A stretch of DNA of 64,000 nt, taken from the NCBI RefSeq assembly GCF_002571385.2, contig NW_019217921.1, forward strand, positions 36,562-100,561. The letters run 5' to 3'. Under the pieces are notes generated by a model. That model was not told the DNA's origin. It did no database searches and saw only the letters and a program-made list of their open reading frames with translations. How positions within the stretch are numbered: the stretch's first letter is position 1; each line of letters starts with the position of its first letter. The stretch comes from Stylophora pistillata (Eukaryota). Below are positions 17,001-23,000 of this stretch, piece after piece. The position numbers were made by a program, and so were the translations under genes.

Positions 17001-20000
17001 AGTGCACATGAGCAAGACAGCAGAGTCTGAGACTACAACAGGTTGGCAAACAATGCAATTCAAAATCCAATGTTGGAAACCAGAATTTTGCCACCAGTGA
17101 CCTGTACATGTAAATGCAAAAATAAAAAAAAAAAAAAATAATAATAATAATTTAGCACCTAGCACAGTAACAGAGGGGAGGATTAAGAGTATCACAAGTA
17201 TATAACACAGGAGTTTTGACTTACTCAGCCAGTACCAAGTTTTTTCACTGTTAGCATATGAATCAAGACCAGTGGACACACTCAGAACAGTGCTTGTGGT
17301 GTTACCAGAGTTGGATGACAGTTCTTTGTACTTTGTCCAACAGTAATAAACAGCTGAAGGTTGAAAAACAAACTACACTGCTTTCACCAAGTTGATTTCC
17401 ACTTGTGGTCACTACTACAGCAACCTCAGCCCTCAACTTTAAAAACAGAAATGTTTGGGTGGAGAATGCAAAAACTGTTTAAACTCCCTAAAATCGTAGA
17501 AGTGGTGCAGTTTTTCCCCAACAGAAGTCAAAATCCATTTGAATGGAAGATTGAAAAGAAGCTAAAACAGTGTGAGCAGCTGCTCAAGACAAATGCCTGA
17601 GAAATGGGATGTGAACAGAATTCCATTTTGAAACAGGAACTAGTTAGTGTAACTTCTCCCCTAGAAGTTCACCTAATAGCCTTTTCCAAACCCCAGAATG
17701 AGTACATAGCAATTTAAAAATAGAAGTAAGAAATAGGCAAATAGGCTCCAATTCAGTGGTGACTGGGGTAAGCTTTTCTTAAAGGTTGACTTTACTTGCG
17801 TGTATTATTAGTTTATGACAGTATCAAAATTAAATTTCACACTTACAGTAGCCAAGGGAAGTCAAAACTGCATAAATGGTCACCCACACCACAAGCCCAG
17901 CAATCCACCTGAAAAAGGAAATTTCAAAAATGTGACATTGAATAATTGAATAAAAGTATGGAATGCCTTTTGATTCAAAAATACTTCTTTTATATAAATA
18001 AACCTTTTCTCAACATATAGAATACTTCTTTCATAGGTGTAATACTTCCTTGTGAATATATAGTCTTTCCTTGCTTTTACAGCAAACTATCCATGGATAA
18101 TAAAACTTCGCGTCGTACAAATCAAACTTGTGGGCAAGTAAGACTTTGTGCTACAAATATAAAACTTGTAATGCAATCCCTTCAAACCCAGCTCCCCGTG
18201 GTCAACATGTGTCAAGACAATTTAAAAATGGTGGACATTGGATGTTTTCTTTGACAAATTTAAAAGATTTCTCGAGGAACTGCCCTTTGAAAAACTACAG
18301 ACAAACCTGTTTACTGAAGATTTCAGTGTTGCCGATCAATCTCTGCATTTAGCTACAAAAACTGATCAAGGATTGGTGTTATTTTTCTGTCTGTTTAAAG
18401 CAATTTATATATTACTACCACCTTGCTACATCAGAATATCTTTTCAACAAGCTTTATTAACAATCTATAAATTTCTTTTAGCAACTAAAATTGGGCCAGG
18501 TCATGCAAAAAGGGCCTGGAAAAAAATAATATGTAGCTTTACTTCCTGACAAAATTTTGATAACATCTTCTTCAAATGGTCCTTATTTTTGGTGGAGAAA
18601 AAGGGGTAAATCAAAAGGGTAAACCTGCAAAACACCCTAAAGCAGAACTTCTGAAATATCTAATTGTTTATATTTATTCATCTTGGCCCTTTTTGCATGA
18701 TACAGCTCAATTGCTATAGCACAATGAAGACATAGTCAAGTGACAGTCATTTGAGACCTAGAGCTCACCTGGTCTTAATATGATTTAAACCCAAGAATAC
18801 CAATGTACTATCAAATGTTTGAACTGGATAAGCATTAATAACAATTCAAGAAAGAAACACCAATGAATGCATTTTGGTTTCAGGCAAAGTGCTTTTGCAA
18901 AGTTGTTACACTGTAACTTCCCCTGACAGAGCGTCTAGCTTGTCTATTGTTGTAAATTGTTCCAACTAGAGTGCAAACAGTCAATCTGTGAGACATTAGA
19001 AAAACAAATTTGCACAAATTTGTACAATTTATATTAAGTAATTCACTATAGTCTATATTTCTTAGTCAAGCCATTGCTTTGGCTGTTCACAGGTTGACAA
19101 TTTATTCACGAAAGTGTGCTATTTAGTAAAATTAATAGTCTCATGGTTTTTACTATTTGCACTCTACCAATTTTGTCAGCATTCTTCTACGTTTTATTGT
19201 GTAATAAGCAAGTACTTCATCATTTTAAATTACACACGGCCCTAAAAGGTAATTACCTCTTGTGAATCATTTAAAAGTGATTTCAAATAAATCATCCCTC
19301 TGGTTTCTTGTTAATCATTTGACTGTAATTTTAAATAAATCAACCCTCTTGCTGGTTTCTCAAGAATCATTCAACTGTAATTTCAAATAAATCAAAACCC
19401 TCTGGTTTCTTGTTTGTCATTCAACTGTAATTTCAAATAAATCAACCCTCTGGTTTCTTGTGAAACATTTATCAATAATTCCAAAATTATTCACCCCTCT
19501 GGTTTCTTTGATTGGATTCTAACATTAACCATGGCAACAACATCCACAATAAAATTGCATAATGAGTATCTAGGCCTGCAAAAAAGACAACCTGGAAAAT
19601 CAATCTGTGCAAGTGCTATTTTTCTTAAAAAGGTGAAAGAACTTAATTTCATATGTTTTGGCAGCAGGATAGAGCTAATGGGCTAACAGCATTTACATCT
19701 TGTTGCCAAGGAATTAAGATCATGTGATTCATTTGGGGGGGATACCATTGTACAATTTCTTAAACATGACACATGCAGGTACAAAATGAACAATGGGAAT
19801 CTCGCAAATAAATCATCACATTATCTGAATTGGTTGGCAACAAGATGTAAACACTACTTAGCTGATGGGATTTTAAGGGTATCAAATTTCCATGCTTGGA
19901 GAGTTTCACAAATGCATTTGATAAGGTGAAATTAAAACAAATAAAAAATATATTTCAAGCAAAAGGTAAAATAAAAAATAATTTTCCCAAACAAATTTTT

Positions 20001-23000
20001 TCTATCAACAATAACATGGAACTTTGAATACATTTTGGATTCACATATTCTGGTCTTTGAAGGAAGATTGATCAGCTTAAAAAAATTAGAATCCCATATT
20101 ATGACCTAGCAAAACTGAAAATATCAGCCATCAAGTCAATAGAACATCAAAATACAACAAAAACGTTTCAATAATTGTATCAGATAAGTTATGCTTGTTG
20201 CACTGGGAACACTGAAGGAGAGCTTCCATACTGAAAACCATGGATCATTGTATAAAACACTTGCCAACAGAGCAAATACCAAAATGGATGTGGTTAAGTG
20301 TTCTTGAATATAGAATTTAAGATGCCAATGGCTTCAATTGCTTGTGCAAGTGCACAACTTCCCCAGAAGAAGCCCAAATAGTAATTTTACTTGTTCTTAC
20401 ACGATGATCCTATCATTTTGTATGACTCCCATTAAGGGAATCATCCAAAGTGCATTTTGTTTTATGTCTACAAATCTAAATGTGTACAGCAAGTGAAGAA
20501 AATATCCATACAGTATACCCCATTTCAACAACAGTGGGTAATTTGAGGCCTGCATGCAAGGTATGGACATTAATTTTTTGTTAGGACGCATTATAGGATA
20601 CTCAACTGAGATGAACTCTATGCTTTTCCGAATGATTGTCCTTTGTTTATTGCAGTAACAAAAACTTCATTAAATTGTTCAGTAGTGGTCATGTGGGCCA
20701 TTGGTAAAATGAACTCCTTAGCACAAGCCCCAACCATAGGATAGCAGATTTTATGTTTTGGATTGTTTTTCTTACAGTCATGATTGAAGGTAACGATTAC
20801 AGAGAGACCTTCATTGCCCAAAAGCTTGTGTTTTTGACCAGTTAGCCATTCAAGAACTCCTGCAGGAGTGAGGTCTGGTTTCTGAAACACCACCTCTGCA
20901 CTGTCAGCTTCACAGGGATTGCCTCCTCAGACCCACTAACCTCCCCATCTTCCAGTGGATGCAGAAGTTCAAATGATGACCCATTGTTCATAGCACTTAC
21001 AGAGGGGTCAGATGCAGAGCTTGAAGAGGTTGATATAGTGAATGAATAGGGTGGTTTCAGCAGGTCACTAGCATCATCATCATCATTCACAACAACAATG
21101 TCATTGTTATCATTTTCATCACCAGAAGAGGCCTCTTGTTGTTCTTTATCACTCACCCAATCAGAGTCTGTTTCTATTGGTATAACACACCTTGTATATA
21201 CTGGACCTTGACCCGAAAAGTGTTTAATCACTCTTTCAGTTATTGAATCCTGTGGAAGGTCTGCAACCACTATTTTGTTTCCTACAGGCCTCACAATCTT
21301 GAAATACCTCCCTTTCAGACACTGCTGAAAGAAGGAGAGTCTGTCCATACTTTCGGATGACATTTCATTCATCAGTTCACAGGCGGGATAGATCAATTCT
21401 CTTATAAATAATTCCTCTCTAGTCTTCCAAAGCAAAACATCAGGTATTTTGGGACTCGGGAGAAGGATGACATCCTTCAATACGGACCCAGATGTAGTTT
21501 TACCCTTCACTTTCCCTTTAGAGTATGGCTTGTAACGTTTGACACGTGGGCCATGGCAATTTGAGCTCAAAGTCAAAGGAACTCAAACCGGAATCTCATT
21601 CCCTGAACTCATTTGGGCAGTACTTCAGCCTATTGAACTCGGAAATAATCTCACCAACGGTCCAGAAGTACTTTCTCCTTTATTCCTTGATGGATCAGGT
21701 TGTGGCATCTCTCTTTCACGTAGAGGATCTGCTAGAGCGGAAAGTCGGTTTGCAAGATCCTCGTGCACCATGTTGCAAAGGTTGAGAGATTGCGTTAGCT
21801 GTCATGTATTGACCGCAGGGAGCTGGGTTCAAAGGGATTGCGTTACAAGTTTTATATCTGTTGCACAAAGTCTTATTTGCCGACAAGTTTGATTTGTACA
21901 ACACCAAGTTTTATTATCCAAGGAAAGTTTGCTATAAAAGCAAGGAAAGACTATATATTCACAAGGATGTATTACATATATGAAAGAAGTATTATATATG
22001 TTGAGGAAAGGTTTATTTATATAAAAGAAGTATTTTTTTAAACAAATGGCATTCCATATAAAAGTGTGTTCTTGTTTTGCTCTACTGCACTTGTAAATAT
22101 TAGTATAAAAATATTACTAAGTTGAGACTGATGAAACATTAATTTAATATTGGTCTCACCTCATAACAATAATATACAAGAATGAAGCCACCATTGCAAT
22201 CCCCATGGCTCTGTTTTAAAAAGACACTGTCAATTATGTGCACTCAGTCTCACTAAAATTATATGCCCAATCTTACTGTGCTTTCTTAATGCAAAACTTA
22301 ACCTGTACACCCCTTTATTATATGGCTGTGTCTCACAAGGACTGGGAACTACCGAATTCATCAATTTGATTGGCTGAAATCAGTAAATTATTGAAAGTGG
22401 TGTAGATTTTCCCTTCCAGACTGGCATCTAGACCAGTCTAGAAAAAAAAAAGGTACAAAGAATATAAAAAATTGGCATAGAAGACACAGCCATATAATAA
22501 ACATCTTATTAACTGAGTTAGGTTGGTCTGTATGGGAGAATCTTGACCTCGGTCACTGGTACAGACCTCACTGCCTTCGGTCTGTACTGGCAACCTCAGT
22601 CAAGATTCTCCCATACAGACCTCCTGCTTGTTTACTAAGAACTAAATACAAAATGAACATAAAAATAGTAAAAACCCAATGGTTTTACAAACTTAATGGG
22701 AGTTTTTTTTTAACAGCCAATAAATTCATACAGCTCAGTGTAGGTGAAAGTGTTGGACAATACCTCACACCTTCACAGCTCAGTAATGTTCTTCTTCACC
22801 CCCTTTTCAGTGAATTATTGTTAAATATACAACTTTACATGACAACAAAGAAAAATGTATGGTTTGCAAAACATACTTCTGCTTTTAAAAAGTGTAATTA
22901 TGGGCTGGTCTTGTTTCCATTATACTTACGCCAGAATCCAGTACCAAGATTGCTGCACATCTTGTATGATCTAACACAAAAATTGATAGGTAAAATTGTT

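Follow-up and report, generated by a model that had tools for sequence, protein, structure and literature searches.

A dead IS3EU/GingerRoot-type transposon with a broken HECT ligase gene in Stylophora pistillata and its two-gene sister elements

The window analysed here, a stretch of 64,000 nucleotides of Stylophora pistillata DNA (assembly GCF_002571385.2, contig NW_019217921.1, positions 36,562 to 100,561), contains a transposon of 4,102 bp at 17957-22058, which lies in an intron of a minus-strand gene for an SLC44A choline transporter (PF04515). Its ends and target-site duplication are those of IS3EU elements, which are described in the available text of PMC10045372 and PMC12730594 as having TA..TA or TAYGG..CCRTA ends and a 6-bp duplication, and in that of PMC8232023, citing Kojima 2019, as encoding two proteins; the structure and function of these elements are called largely unexplored in the accessible parts of PMC8232023 and PMC11934779. 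Here, we report that the window element is a dead, non-autonomous transposon, present as a single copy, and that it likely descends from an IS3EU/GingerRoot lineage with two genes. It retains fragments of a gene for a HECT-type ubiquitin ligase, and elsewhere in the genome and in metagenomes relatives of this gene lie tail-to-tail with an IS3EU-type transposase gene. Comparisons of the two genes across these sister elements bear on what such a ligase may do for a transposon.

Transposon ends and copy number

The element opens with TATGGAATGCC at 17957 and closes with GGCATTCCATA at 22058. Its TATGG…CCATA ends, with TA..TA at the extreme termini, fit the IS3EU/GingerRoot pattern TAYGG..CCRTA, and both flanks carry an exact duplication of the 6 bp characteristic of this group, TAAAAG, a match that two random local 6-mers would give with p ~0.0006. 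The inverted repeats align over 253 bases, 230 of them identical (91%), and exceed the >30 bp that marks IS3EU/GingerRoot repeats. The termini, the exact duplication and repeats of about 250 bp had all been proposed in a preliminary description of this DNA, and each was borne out.

That description had also proposed searching the genome with the inverted repeats for full-length copies. The search led to a single partial copy of 180 bp on contig C9, around which 20 kb held no transposase or ligase match, and to no second copy of the family; likewise, a DNA search of the 398-Mb assembly found no second copy of the element interior. No autonomous partner combining the ends of the window element with an IS3EU transposase was found in the assembly, all these copy-number searches giving lower bounds. 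Matches to an exact 16-mer end pattern on C294 and C609 were rejected as part of an unrelated repeat, and loose scans for paired ends, which gave mostly chance pairs, were superseded by a motif-based scan. At least half of the sequence words of the window are present in 11 sequencing runs from three studies, one of the runs possibly being the source sample; the run label 'coral metagenome' and the cnidarian homologues agree with a coral origin.

A separate, frequent repeat with the end TACGGTGGCCAATTTAC has its right end at 12193 of the window and occurs in G000 on C114, C344, C261, C455, C4, C568 and C698; it probably represents a non-autonomous family of IS3EU elements.

A broken HECT ligase gene

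The right half of the element carries, on the minus strand, the remains of a gene that best matches P0026, a protein of Exaiptasia to which UniRef gives the label 'HECT domain-containing'. Positions 21672-21046 align to residues 18-226 of P0026 at 55% identity, and positions 20917-20621 to residues 661-759 at 76%. The gene has suffered a deletion of ~1.2 kb (~395 codons), two early stops and one frameshift. Runs X12 and X14 of two other studies gave contigs that cross the deletion junction, so the loss of the N-lobe is not an assembly error. The C-lobe remnant matches the profile of the ligase family at E 1e-46, retains both the catalytic Cys and the Phe at position -4, and comes from an open reading frame (ORF) that ends in …GQSFGKA, as the preliminary description had read it. 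No single open frame encodes a complete N-lobe for E2 binding. Owing to the N-lobe deletion, the two stops and the frameshift, the window copy cannot make a ligase, and the ligase activity once suggested for it is not supported. A metagenome scan with the window C-lobe as query gave no match, the ESM Atlas gave no usable match to the domain encoded by the 5′ part of the broken gene, and a single-sequence model of P0026 reached a predicted local distance difference test score (pLDDT) of 35.9.

The left half of the element occupies the position in which a transposase gene would be expected. A plus-strand stub at 18238 had been read there as a transposase remnant; its frame, 18226-18549, lies inside the AT-rich interior. 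Position 18238 is TTG rather than ATG, whereas a nearby ATG, at 18228, opens a different frame that ends in a stop after eight codons; a reading that starts at an ATG requires an assumed frameshift, finds no support and was rejected. The stub has no homologue in the genome or among 120 related transposases and, as weak evidence, none was found among longer database proteins. The six frames of 18210-20611 gave no significant Pfam match, and no DDE transposase gene was detected within the element by the 120 related transposases, their profile or the six-frame Pfam search. The transposase stub is therefore unsupported. Coordinates of the element and of its host intron are collected in Table 1.

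Table 1. Features of the transposon and its host intron, by window position
Feature	Positions	Strand	Basis
SLC44A exon downstream of the element	17847-17908	-	Splice joint, open frame; exon chain continues into PF04515 positions 1-38
Host SLC44A intron, 4,251 bp, GT..AG	17909-22159	-	Splice joint in 4/4 runs; frame of flanking exons open
Left target-site duplication, TAAAAG	17951-17956	+	Sequence
Left terminal inverted repeat, starts TATGG	17957-18209	+	230/253 aligned bases identical to right arm
AT-rich interior, expected transposase position, no coding remnant recognised	18210-20617	.	Transposase, Pfam and genome searches
48-bp tandem repeat, 5.1 copies	19258-19508	.	Sequence
Remnant of the HECT C-lobe, stop codon included; codons of the catalytic Cys at 20723-20725 and of the Phe (-4) at 20630-20632	20618-20917	-	P0026 match, family profile, family fold
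Frameshift near 20920 and deletion junction ~20955-21000; ~395 codons lost, including the whole HECT N-lobe	20918-21000	-	Alignment; L099 match stops at 20954
5′ part of ligase gene; candidate ATGs 21771 and 21708; premature stops 21625-21627 and 21583-21585	21001-21771	-	P0026 match
Right terminal inverted repeat, ends CCATA	21803-22058	-	Arm alignment
Right target-site duplication, TAAAAG	22059-22064	+	Sequence
SLC44A exon upstream of the element	22160-22210	-	Splice joint, open frame

Sister elements pair the ligase with an IS3EU transposase

Searching the genome with the C-lobe gave 25 matches at 20 other loci, of which 18 were taken with their flanks (C2951 and C2112 were left out). A transposase gene lies within ~10 kb of the ligase gene, convergent with it in a tail-to-tail arrangement, in 16 of these 18 C-lobe-chosen loci. 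The same arrangement recurs in metagenomes: from a total of 72 loci, 55 reach the ligase end, 22 of them with at least 1.5 kb of downstream sequence, and a convergent transposase is present in 18 of the 22, with no other orientation in any. The sister transposase matches PF24764 (E 2e-29), and the D, D and E of its catalytic triad are conserved in 76, 75 and 75 of 76 sequences; around the first catalytic Asp, 21 of 23 residues equal those of IS3EU-4_CGi, as compared by eye with the accessible part of the supplement. Sequence thus places the putative transposase of the sister elements in the IS3EU/GingerRoot clade. In C455, L097 and L101 the gene pair is enclosed by TAC…RTA ends and exact 6-bp duplications; C229 and C568 have such ends with one mismatch each in the duplication, and C481 with two. 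The view, first put forward in the preliminary description, that the window element is a deletion derivative of a two-gene element with a transposase and an E3 ligase is supported by the convergent HECT gene of these sisters. Two further elements, C27 and C308, are complete and flanked by exact duplications, and they lack the ligase. As a second gene, the ligase is common but not obligatory.

Individual loci vary in content. The element at G000:C27:315350-317878 is a complete IS3EU element of 2,529 bp with the transposase gene only, 101 of 102 matching repeat bases and an exact CTTTTG duplication. At G000:C370:266695-270945, two near-identical ligase ORFs stand in tandem, 2.5 kb apart, beside one intact transposase; the left end of this element was not found. 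IS3EU elements at G000:C94:133714-139632 and G000:C177:54890-55879 carry a convergent gene with HECT-like motifs of a second kind, recognised by eye only, and neither the ligase-family profile nor Pfam HECT matches these genes. At G000:C167:528843-543019, the neighbours of an IS3EU transposase are a kinase-like ORF, an ORF of 826 residues and a second convergent one; this is possibly a larger cargo element.

The ligase family is a divergent branch of HECT enzymes

HECT enzymes accept ubiquitin from an E2 bound to the N-lobe, carry it on the C-lobe Cys and transfer it from there to their substrate. Relatives of the window gene are whole, uninterrupted ORFs of ~550-760 residues, belonging to a family of 1,611 clusters at E <=1e-10. 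A profile of 99 of them matches HUWE1 and E6AP (E ~4e-5), and the catalytic Cys is present in 99 of 99 members and the Phe four residues from the end in 95 of 99. A structure model of the intact member P0001 (pLDDT 82.7) finds HECT domains in a Foldseek search (E 5e-11) and superposes on the HECT domain of HUWE1 with Z 21.4 and a root-mean-square deviation (rmsd) of 4.0 over 332 aligned residues, with both the N-lobe and the C-lobe fold present. The family thus shares with HUWE1, SMURF2, RSP5 and E6AP (PF00632) the two-lobed fold, the GE-x-GIDSG…E motif of the N-lobe, the catalytic Cys and the Phe at -4. In contrast to these ligases, however, its members are only 12-19% identical to them, fall mostly under the Pfam cut-off and occur in multiple copies within transposons. 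P0001 further differs from known HECT ligases in a predicted N-terminal ubiquitin-like domain (residues 45-160; a middling Z of 8.9, rmsd 2.7, 85 aligned), whereas the window copy differs in lacking the N-lobe. An ESM Atlas search with residues 40-170 of P0001 returned unnamed eukaryotic clusters only. We saw no sign of a viral origin, the fold search giving giant-virus HECT proteins at 9-13% identity. On the strength of the profile and the model, the intact family consists of true but divergent HECT ligases with predicted activity.

Selection and co-inheritance of the two genes

Among four intact ligase genes, the ratio of non-synonymous to synonymous substitution rates (dN/dS) is 0.20-0.25 at dS 0.21-0.27 in five of six pairs, and intact transposases give 0.13-0.14. 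These codon comparisons indicate that the intact ligase is under purifying selection, with dN/dS ~0.2. The histories of the two genes are partly linked. Across the 23 loci with both genes, ligase and transposase distances correlate (Mantel rho 0.36, p 0.013), and the two trees have 8 of 20 splits in common compared with 0.2 at random. Each alignment rejects the tree of the other gene in the approximately unbiased test, for which replicates were below the advised number and decayed copies were included. The ligase of L082 is 90% identical to that of C370, whereas its transposase is only 74% identical; L082 is a possible module swap or a chimeric contig. The pattern fits a long co-inheritance of ligase and transposase that would have been broken by occasional swapping.

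Host intron and RNA across the element

The element begins 48 bp from the acceptor of its host intron, which measures 143 bp once the element and one copy of the duplication are removed. Splicing-out of the intron at 17909-22159 is seen in all four runs examined for it, in raw reads of X23 (nine) and X24 (three) and in contigs of X14 and X12; together with the GT..AG borders and the PF04515 match, the joints confirm the SLC44A location given in the preliminary description. Raw reads, sampled at ~2% of each run, reach depths within the element of at most 1.6 and 3.9 in two runs, come from the host strand only and fall to zero across 18020-19459. Contig depth over the interior is ~2-7, against 234-286 for spliced SLC44A mRNA, and no splice joint into the element is listed among the run data. 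This low interior RNA fits intron RNA or DNA carry-over; the ligase remnant may be weakly transcribed. Promoters in both inverted repeats, as earlier envisaged, are not supported, with no plus-strand RNA over the element in the two raw-read runs at that sampling depth. An Rfam search gave one chance match far under the cut-off, and a bacterial promoter scan was set aside as inapplicable to animal DNA.

Other features lie in and around the host gene. Positions 22129-23282 and 23284-24436 form a tandem duplication of 1,154 bp (1,145 identities, 8 mismatches) in which three SLC44A exons are repeated and a single N joins the copies, likely an assembly artefact of two haplotypes. Two high-copy repeats resembling miniature inverted-repeat transposable elements, with internal inverted repeats and very high read depth, occupy SLC44A introns at 16470-16990 and 22314-22645. 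A single-exon ORF of 923 residues at 35283-38051 (+), on the strand opposite SLC44A, has a signal-like start and membrane segments.

Discussion

Taken together, these data make it very probable that the window holds a dead, single-copy, cut-and-paste transposon of the IS3EU/GingerRoot type, with no detectable transposase and a broken HECT gene, which likely derives from an element with two genes, in which the ligase would attach ubiquitin to a host protein that keeps transposons in check. An IS3EU transposase, its own or one supplied in trans, would have inserted the element through a 6-bp staggered cut; the transposase and the N-lobe would have been lost by deletion, before or after insertion, and the copy would now be neutral. 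In an intact relative, ubiquitin would move from the N-lobe-bound E2 to the Cys of the C-lobe and on to the substrate.

Several observations weigh against this interpretation. No Pfam HECT match was obtained for the C-lobe ORF of the window (eight window ORFs gave none to Pfam). Since that ORF lacks such a match, its HECT identity comes from the family: the proposed HECT check thus failed for the ORF itself and succeeded through the family profile and fold, which uphold the C-lobe identity given to the C-terminal segment in the preliminary description. Within the family, only 2 of 38 relatives tested (120 were listed) pass the PF00632 cut-off. The pairing is not general, since of 11 loci chosen by their transposase, one of them mostly gaps, two carry this type of ligase. 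As for selection, the close pair L082-L084 has a dN/dS of 0.62 at dS 0.026, and ligase pairs that include broken copies range from 0.16 to 0.55. Finally, the transposase of the window element's own family would be of a kind known from the sister elements; no autonomous member was found, and the sister ends read TACGGTGGCC as against TATGGAATGC here.

A host silencing or defence protein has a near-even chance of being the target of an intact ligase. It is favoured over the transposase for several reasons: the ligase moves from one transposase lineage to another, can be dispensed with in cis and comes with varied N-terminal domains, and in IS3EU elements of fungi, according to the available text of PMC12730594, the same slot holds other modifying enzymes. 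It is unlikely that the ligase instead serves self-regulation and not counter-defence, chiefly by ubiquitinating the transposase of its element or by helping to take the transposition complex apart. Such a role would agree with the fixed tail-to-tail pairing and with the partial co-phylogeny of the 23 pairs; against it stand the mutual rejection of the two trees, the discordant identities of L082 to C370, where a chimeric contig is possible, and the young-looking, complete C27 element, which lacks a ligase, although action in trans is possible. Swapping and the ligase-free complete elements C27 and C308 are easier to reconcile with a host target than with a matched transposase. That the ligase has some role directed at neither host defence nor the transposase seems rather unlikely.

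Two further explanations concern the fragment in the window. GingerRoot elements with fragments of host genes are known, and these often lack a transposase (available text of PMC6839031), and the window copy is itself fragmentary, so that the HECT piece could be imagined as a passively captured host gene fragment, in the style of Pack-type or Selaginella GingerRoot elements, with no function for the element. This is very unlikely: the relatives are whole ORFs under apparent purifying selection in a fixed place across many families, a DNA search of the genome revealed no closer parent gene, and the window copy aligns to P0026 at both ends, as expected of a deletion. Passive capture is already largely refuted by the dN/dS of ~0.2 and the fixed layout. 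Exaptation, in which the inverted repeats or the ligase remnant regulate SLC44A or yield a functional short protein, is extremely unlikely. The occurrence of the window's words in 11 runs of three studies and the low minus-strand RNA across the interior would be compatible with it, but the remnant has two early stops and a frameshift and has lost its N-lobe, and the sparse reads come from the host strand only, as for intron RNA, at a small fraction of the mRNA depth and with no listed joint into the element.

Comparison with known systems sets the two-gene interpretation in context. In the available text of PMC10045372, PMC6839031 and PMC8232023, IS3EU/GingerRoot elements have the TA..TA ends and 6-bp duplication found here and two proteins per element; the window copy differs in having no transposase, and the second gene of its lineage is a HECT ligase, which those texts do not mention. 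IS3EU elements of fungi that bear alpha-kinase and TET/JBP genes, as described in the accessible part of PMC12730594, share the TAYGG..CCRTA ends, the 6-bp duplication and a protein-modifying gene opposite to the transposase, whereas the partner here is a HECT E3 in an animal and not a kinase or dioxygenase. Ginger1 elements with OTU or Ulp1 protease domains (available text of PMC2836005) are likewise integrase-like DNA transposons with an enzyme of the ubiquitin/SUMO system; theirs, however, remove the modifier and form one protein with the transposase, and the targets are CCGG/CCGT-specific, in contrast to the separate attaching enzyme and varied 6-bp targets of the present lineage. We found no published report of a DNA transposon, IS3EU or other, that carries a HECT ligase, although the second protein may already have a name in Repbase entries or in Kojima 2019. 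The term 'HECT' is absent from the available text of PMC10045372, PMC12730594, PMC11934779, PMC8232023, PMC6431247, 10.1101/2021.09.26.461848 and PMC6839031, and in that of PMC13726273 it appears only within gene-expression lists unrelated to IS3EU. As far as literature searches reach, the pairing of HECT ligase and IS3EU at the level of the lineage is new, and the window copy is an ordinary fossil of it.

The window locus itself, dead and in a host intron that is still spliced, adds little; better objects of study are the intact sisters, namely the C370 gene pair and L081, and the bounded elements C455, L097 and L101. The lineage gives a name to the second IS3EU protein, a selected, divergent HECT ligase, and so turns a host-transposon conflict into something testable; it also explains as transposon genes many gene models of cnidarian genomes now labelled 'uncharacterised' or 'HECT domain'. 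We suggest tentatively, at somewhat below even likelihood, that a widespread animal branch of IS3EU carries a working HECT E3 as an exchangeable module that would mark host silencing factors for destruction, with the window copy as its fossil. If true, this would be transposon-encoded counter-defence through the ubiquitin system.

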